NCBI GenBank assembly: GCA_965198225.1
Contig: CBDAOY010000005.1
Location: forward strand, 256,001 to 320,000
Reading direction: 5' to 3'
Source of the DNA: Terriglobia bacterium
GTDB taxonomy: Bacteria > Acidobacteriota > Terriglobia > 20CM-2-55-15
Length of the DNA stretch: 64,000 nucleotides
Positions within the stretch are counted from its first letter, which is position 1, and each line of letters starts with the position of its first letter. The position numbers were made by a program, and so were the translations under genes. Shown piece after piece: positions 13,049 through 34,341 of the stretch. The notes beneath the pieces are model-generated. The model made no database searches. It saw only the letters and a program-made list of their open reading frames with translations, and was not told the origin of the DNA.

Positions 13049-13128
13049 TTAGCCACCGACTGCACCGATTTTTCGGATCAAGTGCCTTTGGGACAGACCG
13101 ATTCTTGCTGTCTGTGCAATCCGTGTTC
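13049..13128. repeat. Degenerate family B (cacggatt 9-mer) hairpin
   Basis: tagccaccgactgcaccgattt...tctgtgcaatccgtgtt resembles the 14408 and 15864 copies. Confidence 0.5.
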
Positions 13129-13132
13129 CTGC

Positions 13133-14347
13133 TTACTCATAGCGGAGAGCTTCCACAGGTTGGAGCTTGGATGCTGCGCGGGAAGGATAGATCGTGGCCA
13201 GGTAACTGATCAAAATTGCCGCAGTCGCCACAATTGCCGAGTCGATCGAGCTCAGCTTGAAGGGCACATAGGCGATGGAGTAGACGTCCGGGGCGAGGCT
13301 GACGAGGCGGTAGGCGTCGGCGACGTAGGCAGCGATGTTCCCCACGATGAGACCGATGGCCGTGCCGACCACCCCGATGATCACGCCCTGGGCGATGAAC
13401 ACCCGCCGTATGTTCTCCTCGGTCGCGCCCATCGACATGAGGACCGCAATGTCCCGCGTTTTCTCCATCACCATCATCACGAGTGTCACGACGATGTTCA
13501 GGGAAGCGACGATGACGATCAGGCCGATCGTAATGATCATCACGAGCCGCTCCAGCTGCAGGGCCTGGAAGATCGCTGTGTTCTGGGTCTTCCAATCGGT
13601 GTACTCGAGATCCTGGTCCAGGGCGGAAAGAATGCGTGGACCCAGCGTATCCGTCTCGTCGAGGTCTTCAACCTGTACCTCGATACTGGAGGCCACATCG
13701 CCGACGCGGGAGAGCCGCTGGGCGTTACCCAGCGCAACGTATACCCAACCGGAGTCGAACTCGTACAGTCCGGAGTTGAAGATGCCGACAACCTCGACGA
13801 AGCGGGAGAGGGGCGCCGGACCAGCAGGGGTCAAGCGCGTCTCCGCGCTCAGGATCCGCAGGCGATCGCCGACGAAAGATCCCAGATGCTGCGCCAGTTC
13901 CTCTCCGATCAGGATCGAGTTGTCCTTGAAGTCGTCGACCGAACCCTCGACCAGCGTGTTCAGGACATCCGATCGCGCGGCCTCGAGTTTCGGGACGATC
14001 CCCTTCATCCAGACGCCGCGATTCTGGACGGTGCTCGACAGCAGGACCGTCTGGTACAGGGCCGGAGCGGCCGCTTTCACACCGTCGAGGCGGCTTACCT
14101 GATCCGCCACCGAGCGGTAGTCGCTGATCCCGTCACGGGTTGCCTTCAGTAGCGTGATGTGGGCCTGCGCACCGAGAAGCTTCTCCTGCAGATCCTGCCG
14201 AAAGCCTGCGTTGATGGCCAGGGCGATGACGAGGGCCGCAACGCCGGCGGCGACCCCAACGATGGAGATCACTGTAATGAGCGACACGACGGCCTGCTTG
14301 CGCTTGGCCTTGAGATAGCGGATCGCTACGAGGAACTCGAACCTCAT
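13133..14347 (-). CDS. Lipoprotein-releasing ABC transporter permease LolC/E
   Basis: MRFEFLVAIRYL...EKTRDIAVL..MGA...PVEALRYE. The start is moved to 14347 because the ORF-track extension is repeat sequence. Confidence 0.88.
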   Translation of the reverse strand: MRFEFLVAIRYLKAKRKQAVVSLITVISIVGVAAGVAALVIALAINAGFRQDLQEKLLGAQAHITLLKATRDGISDYRSVADQVSRLDGVKAAAPALYQTVLLSSTVQNRGVWMKGIVPKLEAARSDVLNTLVEGSVDDFKDNSILIGEELAQHLGSFVGDRLRILSAETRLTPAGPAPLSRFVEVVGIFNSGLYEFDSGWVYVALGNAQRLSRVGDVASSIEVQVEDLDETDTLGPRILSALDQDLEYTDWKTQNTAIFQALQLERLVMIITIGLIVIVASLNIVVTLVMMVMEKTRDIAVLMSMGATEENIRRVFIAQGVIIGVVGTAIGLIVGNIAAYVADAYRLVSLAPDVYSIAYVPFKLSSIDSAIVATAAILISYLATIYPSRAASKLQPVEALRYE

Positions 14348-14407: not shown

Positions 14408-14522
14408 TAGCCACGGATTGCACGGATTTAGCGGATTTCTTTCGGACAACGGACCACAGTATTCTTCCTATCCGTGTAATCCGTGAAATCCGTGGCGGTC
14501 TTTGTCCGAGCAATCCGTGGTT
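14408..14522. repeat. Family B palindromic repeat downstream of the split GxxExxY gene
   Basis: agccacggattgcacggatttagcggattt...atccgtgtaatccgtgaaatccgtggc plus an extra arm aatccgtggtt; direct repeat of 15864-15943. Confidence 0.85.
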
Positions 14523-15817
14523 TACCGGATCAATCTTTTCCACGTCAGGCTCTCCTCACCGAAATTGACCACGAGTCCGATCGGCACGGCCCGGGCTTTC
14601 ATGTAGGAAAGGGCCTGCGCAATATGCACATTGTGAATCCCGCTGACCGCCTTTAGTTCGACGATTACCTCGTCATTGACGATGACATCCAGCCGGTGTT
14701 TGCCGACTAGCCCGGGGCGTTTTCGGGTTAACACTAATGAGCATGAATGTTTTACGAATCATTCGGCGTGTGGAGGAGATCACACAGGAGCAGTCGGTTG
14801 TCGCATCGAGCCGGAACTGCCGCGTCATAAGGGCGGGGCAACGTCAGTCTTTCGAACCTGCGGACGGTCTTGAACGCCATTTTCAGACGGTATGGTGGCT
14901 GAGCAGGGCTGCAAGTGGCGCGGTCTGCCCAAGCGCTTTGGCAACTGTCCGCACCACCATCTACACCCGGATGAACCTCATACAAAGCTGGTGATGAAGA
15001 ACGGGGTGCTCGACGCCGTCTTCGAAAAACTCCAGCGCGAGCAACTGGTGCGCATCCGGGTGGAAGCCGTTTCGATGGACTCGACCATTGTGAAGGTCCG
15101 CATCCCGACGGCACAGGAGCGTTAAAAAAAACGGTCCGGTGGCAAGCGATCGGCAACCATCCCGCGGAGGATGGACCACCAAGATTCATCGGATGGTTGC
15201 CGCGAATGCTCGAACGGCGATAACGTTTGCACCTCTCGCCCGGACCTCCTAACCAAGCGCACGACGCCCCGCAGGGCCGCGAGCTGCTCGCCGGCCTGGG
15301 GCCGTTGCCCGCGCCGCTGCCGCTGCCTGATGGACCGTGCCTACCAGGACGACCAGACCCGCCAATTGGCTCTGGATTTTGGGTGGATTCCCGTCGTGCC
15401 GCAGCCAAGCGCAACCGCTTGGAGCCACCGGGAATACGACCGCGTTCTCTACCGCCGCAGGAACGAAGTCGAGAGGCGTGGTCTTCCGCCGACTCAAAGG
15501 TTTCCGGCGTCTCACGCGGTTTGGACAAAGTCCGTGAAATTATTCTCATAAGGGCCGCTTCGATAAACTCGACGTCATGTTCCTCGCCTTCCTTCACTTC
15601 GCTCTCATCGTCGAGGCACTACGTTAGTGTTAACACGCCCTAGCTGGCCTTTATAAGCGACTCGTACTTCCGATTCGGTGGTTCTCGATAGGCCTCGAAG
15701 GCCCAGTTCGTGAAGGAAGGCTTTCCTGTAGATGGTTTCCAGGAAGCCGGGGCCCAACACACGATGGACTTCCATGGCGGCGCCGATAATGGTGCGGGTG
15801 AGTCTCTCCGATCGCAT
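14522..15817 (-). pseudogene. GxxExxY protein gene interrupted by an IS5-family element
   Basis: The 5' half MRSERLTRTIIGAAMEVHRVLGPGFLETIY...YKGQL and the 3' half VGKHRLDVIVNDEVIVELKAV...NFGEESL join in frame across CTAG. Confidence 0.9.
14707..15643 (+). mobile_element. IS5-family (IS427-like) insertion sequence, heavily frameshifted
   Basis: Fragments VAEQGCKWRGLPKRFGN, MDSTIVKV, AHDAPQGRELL and YRRRNEVER; A-run at about 15124. Right IR is ttagtgttaacacgccc, left IR is the degenerate ggcgt...gttaacactaa; CTAG at both ends. Confidence 0.85.
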
Positions 15818-15840
15818 GATCTCGCCGGAGCATTTCGCGT

Positions 15841-15968
15841 GCCACGGATTGCACGGAGGAATCTAGCCACGGATTACACGGATTTAGCGGATTTCTTTCG
15901 GACAGCAGGCCCCAGTATTCTTCCTATCCGTGAAATCCGTGGCTTGTTCTATGTGTGTAATCCGTGGA
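15841..15968. repeat. Family B palindromic repeat upstream of the split GxxExxY gene
   Basis: gccacggattgcacggag...agccacggattacacggatttagcggattt...atccgtgaaatccgtggc...taatccgtggat, ending next to the lysS stop. Confidence 0.85.
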
Positions 15969-15969
15969 T

Positions 15970-17445
15970 CTACTCTTCGGCTCTCAAGTGCGGGAACAGG
16001 ATCACGTCGCGGATTGATCGGGAGTCGGTCAGCAGCATCGTCACGCGGTCGACTCCGATGCCTTCACCGGCGGTCGGCGGCATGCCGTAGGCCAGGGCCC
16101 GGACATAGTCGTCGTCCATGGCGTGCGCTTCTTCGTCGCCCCGTTTCTGAGCTTCGAGCTGGTCCTCGAATCGTTTTCGCTGGACCACGGGGTCGTTCAG
16201 CTCCGAATAGGCGTTGGCAATCTCCATGCCGGCTATGAATAGCTCGAAGCGTTCGACGAGCCGGGGGTCGCTCTTCTTCGCCTTCGAAAGCGGGGACATC
16301 TCGACCGGATAGTCGTAAATGAAGGTAGGCTGGATCAGGTGCTCTTCGGCGACGTTGTCAAACAGCTCGCCGATCAGGTAGCCGAGGGGAAGCTGCGGAT
16401 TGTAGTCGGCCTTCACATCGTCGAGTAGCATGACGACGCTTTCGGGTTCGTCGAACATCGACTCCTGGATCTCGCGCGGATAGTACTTGACGATAGCTTC
16501 CTTCACACTGAGCCGGGTCCAGTTGTCGAAATCGATCTCTTTGTCGGCATAGGTGATCCGGCGCGACCCGCAGACCTTGTCGACCACAGCCTTCATCATC
16601 TCCTCGGTCAGATCCATCAGGTCGGTGTAGTCGCTGTATGCCTCGTAGAACTCCAGCATCGTGTACTCGGGGTTGTGTTTGATCGACATCCCTTCGTTGC
16701 GGAAGCTTCGGTTCAGGTCGTAAACCTTGCTCAACCCACCGACGATCAGCCGCTTCAAGTACAACTCGGGCGCGATCCGGAGGTAGAACGGCATGTCCAG
16801 CGTGTTGTGGTGTGTCCTGAAGGGTCGCGCCAACGCGCCTCCGGCGACGGGATGGAGGATCGGAGTCTCGACCTCGAGGTACCCTCGGTCGTCGAGGAAG
16901 CGCCGCATCTCTCGGACGATCTGGCTGCGTCTTACGAAAACGTCGCGAACGGCCTGATTGACGATGAGGTCCACGTACCGTCGTCGGTACCGAATCTCGA
17001 CGTCGGTCAGTCCGTGCCACTTTTCGGGAAGTGGCAGAAGACCCTTGGAGAGGAAGGTCAACTCGGACGCCAGCACGGTGAGTTCACCGGTGCGCGTCCG
17101 GAACATCGCCCCTTCGACACCGATGAAGTCGCCGATGTCGAGCAGCTTGTAGAGATGGAAATCCCTTTCCGGAAGTTTGTCTTTCTTGGCGTAGACCTGG
17201 ATCCGGCCTCCGCCCTCGTAAATCGTCAGGAACCCGGCTTTTCCGAAAGGACGGCTTGCGACGATCCGGCCGGTCACCCGGACAGTCTCGGACGACTGCT
17301 CCAGTTCTTCACCGGATCTCTCGGAAAACTGGTCGGTCACAGCCAGCAGCGTGTGTGTATATTCGTACGAAGTCGGGTATGGATCGTAGCCGAGCTCTTC
17401 GATCTTCTTGAGCTTCTCGAGCCGGACCTGTTCGAGTTCTTCCAT
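15970..17445 (-). CDS. lysS: Lysine--tRNA ligase
   Basis: [23 protein letters not shown] and [15 protein letters not shown] motifs. Confidence 0.97.
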
Positions 17446-32473: not shown

Positions 32474-33214
32474 ATGGACGTTTTTCAACTCGAAGAGGTC
32501 ACCAAAGACCGTGGGGACGACTTCACGCTCGGACCGCTGAGCCTTCATATGTCGCCAGGAGAGATCCTCGGTGTGATGGGGCCGAACGGGGCCGGTAAAA
32601 CGACTCTGCTGAGAATGCTCTGGGGCTTCCTCCGTCCCGACGCGGGACGGATATCTGTCTTCGGTCGGTCGCCGCACCTGGAACAGGTCTGGGTTCGACT
32701 CCGAGCAGGCTATTTGTCGGAAGCTCCCGAGTTCTACGGGTGGATGACCGGCAGACGCTTCCTTTCGTTTATCGCGGGATTCTATCCAAGCTGGGATTGG
32801 AGGCGCGCCGACCGGCTGCTCGAGGACTTCGAGTTGGACGGCGGGAAGAAGGTGGGGGAACTGTCGAAGGGCAACCGGATCAAGCTCGGCCTGATCGCAG
32901 CTATCGCACACCGGCCGCAATTGCTGATTCTGGACGAACCGACATCCGGCCTGGACCCAGTCATCCGAATTGACATATTGGAGTTCTTACGCACGCTGTC
33001 GCGGGATGACGGCACCGGCGTCGTCATGTCCTCACACGTGTCGGACGATCTAGACCGCATCGCTGACTCCGTATTGATGCTGAATGGAGGACGGGTTGTC
33101 GAGTACGCTCCCGCGGCGGTCCTGTTAGACAGGTACGACAAATGCCAGCTGGAGGAAGTGTTCCTACATGCAATCGGTCGGGTTTCCACGACTCGCGCTG
33201 CACATCGCGCGTAA
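32474..33214 (+). CDS. ABC transporter ATP-binding protein (possible immunity)
   Basis: GPNGAGKTT, LSKG and LDEPTSGLDP motifs; start MDVFQL. Confidence 0.85.
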   Translation: MDVFQLEEVTKDRGDDFTLGPLSLHMSPGEILGVMGPNGAGKTTLLRMLWGFLRPDAGRISVFGRSPHLEQVWVRLRAGYLSEAPEFYGWMTGRRFLSFIAGFYPSWDWRRADRLLEDFELDGGKKVGELSKGNRIKLGLIAAIAHRPQLLILDEPTSGLDPVIRIDILEFLRTLSRDDGTGVVMSSHVSDDLDRIADSVLMLNGGRVVEYAPAAVLLDRYDKCQLEEVFLHAIGRVSTTRAAHRA

Positions 33215-33809
33215 GGACTGGGGCGAGTCCAGGAAACTGATCCTGACTCTAACCGCGGCCTTGCTCGTCCCCGCTCTACTGGTCCGTTTATTTCCAGGCC
33301 GATCCGAAGACTTCGCCAAAGGTCTGCTCGCCGGCCTGCTCGCCGGCGCCGGCTTCGGCTATGCCCAGTACTGCTTCCTCAACGAACGCCTCCGGAATAC
33401 ACTGGATCTTCTACTGAGCCTGCCGATTGAACCCCGCGACCTTGTGCTTGCCAAATACGTCTCGCTCTACTCGATGGTTCTCTTCACGGTAAACATCCCG
33501 GCCCTCTTCATCTCCAACCTCCAACTCATCTTCATCGTCAACGCCGCTGCTCTGTCCCTGGCAACACTGTTCATGGCCACCACCGTCATCTCCGACAAAC
33601 CCTGGGCCGCCCAGATCCCGATTTATCTGCTCCTGGTTTTTATCCTCCCCTCTGAACGCCTCCTCAACCGTTACTACCCTTCCGGCCTCGACCTCTTCCG
33701 CACCCTCACATCCCACCCCCTCCTCCTCGCCACCCTGGCCCTGCTCCTGACCCCCGCCCTGATCGCTGGATCGACGTTTTTTTTCACCACGGAGGCGCGG
33801 AAGCACTGA
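33168..33809 (+). CDS. ABC-2-type membrane permease (possible immunity)
   Basis: About six TM segments and an ERLRNTLDLLLSLPIEPRDLVLAKY ABC-2 motif. Confidence 0.75.
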   Translation: MQSVGFPRLALHIARKDWGESRKLILTLTAALLVPALLVRLFPGRSEDFAKGLLAGLLAGAGFGYAQYCFLNERLRNTLDLLLSLPIEPRDLVLAKYVSLYSMVLFTVNIPALFISNLQLIFIVNAAALSLATLFMATTVISDKPWAAQIPIYLLLVFILPSERLLNRYYPSGLDLFRTLTSHPLLLATLALLLTPALIAGSTFFFTTEARKH

Positions 33810-34216
33810 GGTGAGGTTTCATCCGGTGACCCGACAGGTTATCGGTGCTGCGATCGAGGTTCACAAGGCCATGGGTTCGGGTTTGTTGGAGTCCATCTAC
33901 CAAGAATGCCTCGAAGTCGAACTACGATTAAGGCGTGTCCGTTTCGAGCGCCAGAAGACGATCCCCTTGACATACAAAGGCGTGGAGGTTGGGGCGGCGC
34001 TCAGACTGGACCTACTTGTTGGAAACACGGTCATCGTGGAGATCAAAGCGGTCGAATCGATAACACCGGTGCATGAAGCTCAGTTAGTAACCTACCTACG
34101 GCTCACGGGCTGCTCTGTGGGCCTTTTGATCAACTTCAACGTGGAGGTACTTCGGAAGGGGGTCAAACGCATGATCAACTACAGGTAGCTCCGCGCCTCT
34201 GTGCCTCCGTGGTTAA
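33784..34216 (+). mobile_element. Candidate autonomous GxxExxY element (family A arms enclosing the gene)
   Basis: Left arm caccacggaggcgcggaagcactgag abuts the GTG start; right arm ctccgcgcctctgtgcctccgtggttaa abuts the TAG stop. Confidence 0.6.
33811..34188 (+). CDS. GxxExxY protein (PD-(D/E)XK nuclease superfamily)
   Basis: IGAAIEVHKAMGSGLLESIY, RLDLLV, IVEIKAV, QLVTYL and GLLINFN motifs. Confidence 0.92.
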   Translation: MRFHPVTRQVIGAAIEVHKAMGSGLLESIYQECLEVELRLRRVRFERQKTIPLTYKGVEVGAALRLDLLVGNTVIVEIKAVESITPVHEAQLVTYLRLTGCSVGLLINFNVEVLRKGVKRMINYR

Positions 34217-34341
34217 CAAAAACTTCGTGTTCTTCGTGCCTTCGTGTTCAAAAAAATCGTCCCAACACGGACCATTTTCGAATCAGGCCAACCCATTTCA
34301 GTCAGTTGCGTTGTTGGAACCCCATTTGCCTCAATGTGGGG

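Follow-up and report, generated by a model that had tools for sequence, protein, structure and literature searches.

The window analysed here is a 64,000-nt stretch (G000:C5:256001-320000) of the genome of a Terriglobia bacterium (G000; 6.41 Mb, 60 % G+C, nine contigs). Our subject is a small gene of the GxxExxY family (Pfam PF13366, NCBIfam TIGR04256), hereafter GxxExxY-B, which lies in this window between lolC/E and lysS and is bracketed by palindromic repeats belonging to a dispersed family that we term family B. Going from lolC/E to lysS, we found a palindrome, a single arm, the minus-strand GxxExxY-B gene, a second single arm, a second palindrome and a further single arm, with an insertion sequence (IS) lodged inside the gene. 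The features of the locus are listed below by window position, followed by the neighbouring genes and a degenerate copy of the repeat.

14410-14496, plus strand: left family-B palindrome, an inverted repeat (nhmmer E 3e-21; fold z -5.8)
14503-14520, minus strand: outer (R-extension) arm of the left element, located by repeat search; equivalent outer arms occur in other family-B copies
14522-14710, minus strand: C-terminal half of GxxExxY-B (PF13366 positions 57-116, E 4.4e-16; TIGR04256 positions 57-116), with the D and E-x-K motifs
14711-15639, plus strand: IS5-family insertion of 929 bp, with inverted ends, a CTAG target duplication (14707-14710 and 15640-15643) and a weak DUF4096 match
15640-15817, minus strand: N-terminal half of GxxExxY-B (PF13366 positions 2-56, E 6.1e-15; also TIGR04256), with an ATG at 15817 and the GFLETIY motif
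15841-15967, plus strand: full-length family-B element (right), an inverted repeat with 42-nt arms at 79 % (fold z -7.2)
13133-14347, minus strand: lolC/E, with FtsX and MacB_PCD domains
15970-17445, minus strand: lysS, a class II tRNA synthetase
13052-13126, no strand assigned: degenerate, gene-less family-B element in the lolD|lolC/E gap (nhmmer E 8e-6 with the family profile; fold lost, z -0.9)

The left palindrome consists of an L arm (14410-14436), a loop and an R arm (14470-14496), with 27-nt arms that are 85 % complementary; its outer L-extension arm is missing. The right element comprises an L-extension arm (15841-15860), an L arm (15866-15892), a loop, an R arm (15926-15944) and an R-extension arm (15950-15967), the palindrome proper spanning 15866-15944. 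The two palindromes are direct repeats of one another (92 % identity across 78 nt), and a sequence-only reading of this DNA, which had described a GxxExxY gene bracketed by near-identical palindromes between lysS and lolC/E, was correct on this point, with every element lying where it had been placed. The same reading had noted extra single arms abutting two stop codons, and we found these 1 nt from the stop of GxxExxY-B (14522-14524, next to the arm at 14503-14520) and 2 nt from that of lysS (15970, next to the arm at 15950-15967); they are not separate entities, however, but part of a nested, full-length element of ~127 nt. Family-B arms come to within 1 nt and 23 nt of the two ends of GxxExxY-B, and those adjoining it face inward, placing the gene between two complete elements. 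When folded as single strands against 200 shuffles, 14408-14498 and 15839-15969 gave the z scores listed above (-5.8 and -7.2), with 0/200 shuffles as good for either. The arms are built from stacked 9-nt units (CACGGATTG, CACGGATTT and AGCGGATTT; unit consensus CRCRGATTN), and CCACGGATT occurs eight times in the window against 0.70 expected, a count reached by 0/100 shuffles.

GxxExxY-B is not intact in this assembly, a point missed by the sequence-only reading: the 929-bp IS5-family insertion splits it exactly between PF13366 profile positions 56 and 57. Two separate open frames match the Pfam and NCBIfam models, 15605-15817 over positions 2-56 and 14522-14734 over positions 57-116, and both score above the curated cut-offs, the N-terminal half with 56 bits for PF13366 (cut-off 22) and 56.7 bits for TIGR04256 (cut-off 35), and the C-terminal half with 59.7 and 67.3 bits, respectively. 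The IS has seven other long matches in the genome at ~86-89 % identity, six of them ~810 bp; the only one that was scanned, C6:285909-286718, encodes DUF4096 and DDE_Tnp_1, and the element was therefore marked as IS5-family. That the palindromes might themselves be the ends of this IS was ruled out, because inverted ends of its own and a CTAG duplication delimit the IS within the gene.

Contigs of four public runs (X1, X3, X6 and X7) were aligned to the region. In a 676-nt contig from X3 (depth 22.6, 0 mismatches), 14706 is followed directly by 15640, with 933 bases absent, and removal of the IS plus one CTAG in silico yields an open 120-codon frame; in X1, the locus contigs end inside the IS, as expected for a disrupted allele. 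Thus, the disruption of GxxExxY-B is recent and polymorphic, with another sampled strain keeping the gene whole, and the uninterrupted gene of ~115-125 residues that characterizes the family is broken in this assembly and present in the IS-free allele of X3. The IS copy at 14711-15639 carries ~100 extra bases, as many small indels, relative to the six full-length ~810-bp copies, and the locus-specific X1 contig has 11 gap positions, taken as lying within its last 33 nt, inside the IS; this copy may be degenerate or poorly polished.

It had further been suggested that the direct repeats would allow the gene and one hairpin to be excised as a cassette, and such excision would be plausible. No joint skipping the whole gene-hairpin cassette was present in the contigs of the four runs, which is uninformative either way, since contigs drop rare variants. 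An X3 joint from 14496 to 15864 (depth 6, with 11 unrelated letters between its two sides) was considered as an excision product and rejected; the joint would amount to two adjacent hairpins and most likely stems from another locus or another organism. Backward joints from ~15892 to 14452-14467 were likewise rejected, being other family-B copies with different loops.

On the basis of its sequence, GxxExxY-B is a predicted nuclease, a 120-residue minimal PD-(D/E)XK domain with its catalytic signature intact. In an alignment of 35 sequences, ≥ 90 % have each of five residues (E22, D62, E72, K74 and Q86, in the numbering of the second GxxExxY protein of this genome, paralog A), all of which also occur in the B halves, such that the E...D...E-x-K signature of the PD-(D/E)XK superfamily is retained across the two pieces. 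As B is in two pieces, the fold comparison was made with paralog A only. Its structure model (predicted local distance difference test score 96.7) aligned with 3ijm over 97 residues (Z 8.2, root-mean-square deviation 2.9), as well as with Cas4 (4ic1, Z 8.0), the BpuSI nuclease domain (Z 8.0) and Hjc (1gef, Z 6.7). The best structural matches are all PD-(D/E)XK restriction-endonuclease-like folds with modest scores, the best Foldseek E-value being 1.1e-3, and no solved relative emerged by sequence, the Protein Data Bank having no match to paralog A better than E 0.031. As such, the model points to a restriction-endonuclease-like core fold for paralog A. The function of PF13366 is given as 'Unknown' in a table of PMC3424549, and another source mentions, in an unrelated context, a GxxExxY domain next to a reverse transcriptase (10.1101/2021.01.26.428298).

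Although the palindromes do flank the gene, they are not its private property but members of the dispersed family B. A search with nhmmer, using a profile from full-length copies, gave 39 loci genome-wide (73 matches collapsed), whilst an exact 18-nt pattern found 58 arms at 37 loci. The elements measure ~90-127 nt, the full-length form being the nested arm-arm-loop-arm-arm structure of ~127 nt seen at 15841-15967, and many copies bear extra outer arms. With only 39 such loci in 6.41 Mb, the probability of two copies flanking the gene by chance is, by our own arithmetic, negligible. In an alignment of 35 copies, a 9-nt loop deletion and the string CAGTATTCTTCC were common only to the two that flank the gene; this unique deletion marks the two as sisters, derived by duplication of one element rather than from two separate insertions. 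The sequence-only reading had also placed a degenerate empty copy near 13049-13128, and the family profile indeed matches at 13052-13126, where the sequence no longer folds. At the orthologous site between lolD and lolC, the relative G012 has a canonical B element and G003 an element of a B-like 9-nt pattern that we call B'.

We then have the state of the same site in relatives. lysS and lolC/E are adjacent in 11/11 relatives fetched, and in none of these 11 does a GxxExxY gene lie between them. In G001, the lolC-lysS gap (177 nt) contains one nested hairpin of 9-nt ACGCRGATT units (B') and no gene, and this single hairpin aligns colinearly with the right element at 15841-15967, the outer arm at the lysS stop included. 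G002 and G003 have an unrelated hairpin of 8-nt GGACCTCG-type units at this position, and the other relatives show gaps of 12-280 nt or unrelated inserts. Loci of this kind with a single hairpin had been anticipated; one that lacks the gene does exist, in G001, but it is of the diverged B' type rather than an empty allele of the same family. In G005, the gap (L004:363-3552) holds a 3.2-kb insert bounded by CGCAAAGG-type hairpins, in which a TypA/BipA-like GTPase and a small two-gene pair were recognized by eye.

A profile search found only two GxxExxY loci in the genome, B and the following:

33786-34215, plus strand: paralog GxxExxY-A (gene 33811-34188), nested in family-A arms (PF13366 E 5.7e-43; TIGR04256 E 4.9e-45)

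GxxExxY-A is intact, and the inverted arms that enclose it, made of 8-nt units (CACGGAGG and variants), have their CCACGG ends pointing outward. The observation that families A and B have the CCACGG terminus in common while differing in their units was confirmed, the period being 9 nt in B and 8 nt in A. Family A has 61 pattern matches at 49 loci, and its copies share arms with unrelated loops. Paralog A is syntenic in G002, G003 and G005, where the same ABC-2 membrane gene precedes it and lysS is 17-19 kb away, with a truncated remnant at the same place in G012; G020 was placed in this synteny solely by the likeness of its flanks to those of G012. The arms around the gene differ by genome, being CACGGAGG in G000, CGCAAAGA in G002, CGCAGAGG in G003 and CGCAAAGG in G005, G020 and G012. 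The CACGGAGG pattern is found 61 times in G000 and in none of the 23 relatives from the same family, and CGCARAG-type arrays have 474 matches in G002, 376 in G003, 149 in G005 and 72 in G020. In 17 of 18 PF13366-negative genomes the CGCARAG pattern has no more than three matches, the exception being G001 with 171 (an assembly that is 94 % complete, in 230 contigs). Moreover, at four orthologous A-type sites (the gaps 18456|19347, 20331|22900 and 28077|30381, and the gene itself), which were read by eye, each genome uses its own flavour, with CACGGAGG in G000 where congeners have CGCARAGG.

Several further observations concern these arrays. Within a genome, both families tend to have a unit core of 5 nt in common: CACGG in G000 (CACGGAGG and CACGGATT; 14412-14436 and 33788-33810) and CGCAG in G003 (CGCAGAGG and CGCAGATT), with G012 and G020 breaking the pattern (CGCAAAGG and CACGGATT). 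In the window (33168-33809), the left family-A arm encodes the last residues (TTEARKH) of the ABC-2 membrane protein, whose stop codon lies within the arm; in G005 (L014:1-963), no stop interrupts the ABC-2 frame, which continues across the left arm and into the GxxExxY gene to form an open frame of 320 residues. A third kind of array (CACGAAGG-type, minus strand) occupies 34222-34250, immediately after the right arm of the cassette that holds paralog A. Orthologous intergenic sites across 2834-35600 of the window, compared in G000, G003, G002 and G012, nearly always hold a stacked-unit hairpin, often of differing family (CACGGAGG, CGCARAGG, GGACCTCG, ACGCAGATT, TTGGCTTT and AGCTNTTAGCT among them). 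Additionally, a 1551-nt GxxExxY locus in G021 (L015) is identical to the G003 locus (L013) in protein and flanks, though the two are labelled as different genera; this identity may reflect a mixed bin or recent transfer.

PF13366 is patchily distributed, with matches in 22 of 40 relatives and 0-7 matches per genome. A tree was made of 39 GxxExxY proteins from 22 related genomes, leaving aside L015 (identical to L013), L020 and L052 (truncated) and L051 (frameshifted); the array periods placed on it were called by hand, the automatic period caller being unreliable. The proteins fall into two clades (support 94/87), with a period of 8 in 17/20 rows of the paralog-A clade, and of 9 or 10 in 17/19 rows of the paralog-B clade, where period 8 occurs in 0/19. 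The label '8' requires three changes on the tree against a shuffled mean of 12.8, and 0/500 shuffles were as low. Mapping repeat type onto the GxxExxY phylogeny, a check that had been proposed, thus shows the period following the two clades. The unit sequences are distributed similarly: at least three CRCRGAT[TG] units lie near the gene in 5/19 B-clade and 0/20 A-clade rows, and at least three CRCRRAGR units in 1/19 and 13/20, respectively. In most of 41 loci from relatives the gene is nested within one pair of arms, and nearly all have inverted arrays.

Among the 40 relatives, a close relative of paralog B was found in G018 alone, at a different locus; the G018 gene is the sister of B (support 99/93), and its genome has 66 B'-pattern matches. 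The locus in question lies upstream of a C39-peptidase ATP-binding cassette exporter (L018, G018:C460:11339-12874), and the same locus in G000 is that of paralog A. The repeats are more widespread than the gene. Family-B matches number 58 in G000, 46 in G012 and 66 in G020; the pattern was not found in the congeners G001-G003, where B' matches number 120 (G001), 29 (G002) and 73 (G003). Searches with the family model and with either protein half found no B-clade gene or remnant in G012, G020 or G001 (a marginal G012 match had E 0.027), and G002 and G003 have the A-locus gene as their sole GxxExxY gene. Thus, the gene implies the family (2/2 genomes), but the family does not imply the gene (5/7 genomes without it).

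A wider sample of 80 loci from many phyla was collected with the G018 protein, the next-best identity being 51 %. Flanking inverted repeats scoring ≥ 14 were present at 35/78 usable loci against 0/78 shuffled controls, and at least three CRCRGAT[TG] units lay next to the gene at 14/79 loci against 0/79 far flanks. An exclusive mapping of clade to unit across phyla was rejected, as loose motifs of the B type and of the A type each occur near genes at 14/79 loci; the evolution of unit sequences is too rapid to allow a simple rule. In the gene-negative genome G006, 0/37 hairpins in 400 kb had periodic arms, against 2/58 in 400 kb of G000, a comparison that is underpowered and uses an insensitive detector; G006 carries other, non-array repeats.

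The A gene has nine of the 49 family-A loci within 50 kb of it, against 0.76 expected (P 6e-8), and the B gene has six of the 37 family-B loci within 100 kb, against 1.15 expected (P 9e-4), flanking copies being excluded in both cases; the two signals are not independent, as genes A and B are 18 kb apart. Three families with 7-nt units showed no enrichment within 50 kb of the B gene (3/122, 1/57 and 0/59 loci). This clustering of hairpins around the genes hints at local action.

The best-supported reading of these data is that the locus is the gene-bearing member of a repetitive extragenic palindromic (REP)-like family of 'array hairpins'. We give about an even chance to this reading, a partnership like that of REPIN-RAYT systems, here with a PD-(D/E)XK nuclease, in which the gene has been caught in the course of being lost. 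We infer that the GxxExxY-B protein would, most likely, recognize the stacked 9-nt units and cut at or near the extruded hairpin, and that cutting would move or copy hairpins and occasionally the gene itself, following the logic of REPIN-RAYT with an unrelated enzyme. The history of the locus would then run as follows. A family-B hairpin was presumably already present at the 3' end of lysS; the gene would have been added beside this lysS-proximal hairpin, along with a duplicate of it; and the gene, being dispensable, would now be disappearing, split by the IS5-family element here and whole in another sampled strain.

A number of observations weigh against this interpretation. Family-B copies are old, with a median pairwise identity of 0.72 and nearest-neighbour identity ≤ 0.91 for all but two pairs, and they show no sign of recent activity. 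The sharing of arms alone in family A is at odds with simple copying from a master element. The arrangement at the B locus, with the gene between two elements, also departs from that in most relatives, where it is nested within a single pair of arms. B or B' is abundant in five relatives (G012, G020, G001, G003 and G002) in which no B-clade gene was found, and hairpins thus persist without the gene. The link between clade and period rests largely on one deep split and on hand-called periods. Furthermore, at least five other families of inverted arrays in G000, with 7-nt units (GTAGGCC, CAGTAGT, AAGTGAC, TCAGCKA and GAGATTY), are without a GxxExxY gene. G000 has two PF05635 genes, which encode four-helix bundles; one (G000:C8:688650-689420, outside the window) is nested between inverted GTAGGCC arrays, a family of GTAGGCCGTTG units with ~122 loci in G000, and the nesting of small genes in arrays is therefore not specific to nucleases; the second (C6:1039426-1039722) lies between direct copies of a different palindromic element. 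The proposal of the sequence-only reading that each nuclease has one cognate repeat family consequently stands in part. Each paralog has its own family, period divides with protein clade and the arms of A match the family of the genome, but B and B' occur without a B gene and other array families occur without any GxxExxY gene.

The main rival to the partnership, which we consider rather unlikely, holds that the gene is a selfish, homing-type parasite of hairpins, whose nuclease would target arrays of a particular unit and thereby place the gene within or next to a hairpin, and that the arrays arise otherwise and the gene has no role in spreading the gene-less copies. It accounts better than the partnership does for the gene-less B populations, as B and B' thrive without a B-clade gene in 5/7 carrier genomes. 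The lysS-proximal hairpin would have preceded the gene, because G001 has the hairpin and no gene, and the position of the gene in most relatives, within the loop of a single hairpin, resembles that of a homing endonuclease gene within the site it targets. The B-clade gene of G018 at what is the paralog-A locus would be a case of a site re-used, and the patchy distribution of PF13366 (22/40 relatives, 0-7 matches per genome) is likewise as expected of a parasite. A parasite should nevertheless have done better than one gene copy per family when dozens of potential target hairpins are available. Nor does this explanation sit well with paralog A, which keeps a single syntenic position in different genera, with arms that change along with the family dispersed in each genome. 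Were the hairpins independent of the gene, it would also be unexpected that 17/18 gene-negative genomes have next to no CGCARAG-type arrays (≤ 3 matches), and that hairpins cluster around the genes.

Alternatively, the hairpins could be REP-like structures that serve the host as terminators or mRNA stabilizers, with the gene a passive passenger that builds up at such tolerant sites and whose product does not specifically recognize the repeats; we regard this as improbable. It is in keeping with the placement of family B, 34/35 copies of which are intergenic by a crude open reading frame (ORF) call, 13 between convergent and four between divergent genes, as well as with the finding that orthologous sites in four genomes nearly always hold some hairpin of varying family, and with the nesting of a non-nuclease, four-helix-bundle gene in another array family. 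Family B, however, shows no orientation bias with respect to transcription in co-directional contexts (ten copies in the same sense and eight in the opposite), and an Rfam scan of the element gave no family match, only chance-level hits to microRNA hairpins (17-22 bits against gathering scores of 51-100). Moreover, a host-serving role leaves unexplained why array period and unit track the protein clade, why the arms of the gene match the family of each genome, and why hairpins cluster near the genes.

That local tandem duplication or recombination of hairpins merely trapped an unrelated, horizontally acquired gene is disfavoured and very improbable: the sister relationship of the flanking copies and the lack of a close relative of the gene in congeners are consistent with it, but the same bracket recurs around relatives of the gene, with inverted repeats at 35/78 loci of the wider sample against 0/78 shuffled, at least three B-type units nearby at 14/79 against 0/79 far flanks, and inverted arrays at nearly all 41 loci from relatives.

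Returning to the partnership with a nuclease, the closest known parallel is REPIN-RAYT, which consists of REP doublets and REP-associated tyrosine transposases (10.1101/2022.05.22.493013, PMC5581495, PMC3116915). As that system is presented there, the likenesses are that there is one gene per family, flanked by the same palindromes that are dispersed in extragenic space, that the gene is inherited vertically and in synteny (a likeness that holds here for paralog A, paralog B being single-copy but with its one close relative, in G018, at another locus), that repeat families differ between related genomes and that repeat populations outlive the gene. The enzyme differs, being here a 120-residue PD-(D/E)XK protein (PF13366) rather than a Y1 HUH transposase; the arms are stacked tandem units of 8-10 nt ending in CCACGG, unlike GTAG-tagged REPs; and in most relatives the gene is inside the hairpin loop. 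The RAYT transposase family PF01797 was not found in G000 at E ≤ 0.001, whilst controls gave matches in 6/14 genomes.

There are also resemblances to pairs of IS and miniature inverted-repeat transposable elements, in which inverted terminal arms surround a gene or a short non-coding core and gene-less copies are many and gene-bearing ones few; here, the arms are common to both kinds. In contrast to such pairs, the gene-bearing copy has no recognized transposase, the loops of family A are unrelated, no target-site duplication could be defined and the gene-bearing copy (paralog A) holds a syntenic position in several genera instead of hopping. In 23S rRNA, ORF-bearing intervening sequences (IVSs) have a long inverted-repeat stem that encloses one small ORF, and the PF05635 gene nested in an array family in G000 belongs to the IVS-protein family. 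Unlike these, the present locus lies between lolC/E and lysS, outside any rRNA helix, its ORF encodes a nuclease-fold protein, and the B gene is between two hairpins and not inside one. Free-standing homing endonuclease genes, finally, include PD-(D/E)XK types, and the likeness here is that of a small nuclease gene in or beside the sequence that it plausibly recognizes; the differences are that dozens of presumed targets are uninvaded and that there is no intron or intein. No report connecting GxxExxY genes with repeats was found in the literature searched.

More generally, we tentatively propose, as a possibility that we think somewhat less likely than the partnership at this one locus, that GxxExxY nucleases and stacked-unit hairpins may form a widespread, previously undescribed nuclease-repeat partnership, in which nuclease specificity would co-evolve with unit sequence and period, and the active family would overwrite the hairpins at gene ends. 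Such overwriting would explain how hairpins are kept at orthologous sites while their flavour switches with the arms of the resident gene.

Whichever form the association takes, the window offers a test bed in which two paralogs and two distinguishable repeat families occur in one genome, IS-disrupted and intact alleles in the population constitute a natural knock-out pair, and relatives supply both repeats kept without the gene and syntenic sites with switched repeat flavour. PF13366 is a large family across phyla, and if GxxExxY proteins act on the arrays that surround them, an orphan nuclease family would gain a role. If true, this would also provide a candidate enzyme for REP-like hairpins in many phyla that lack RAYTs, and would open to study small nucleases whose recognition units are short, periodic and evolvable.

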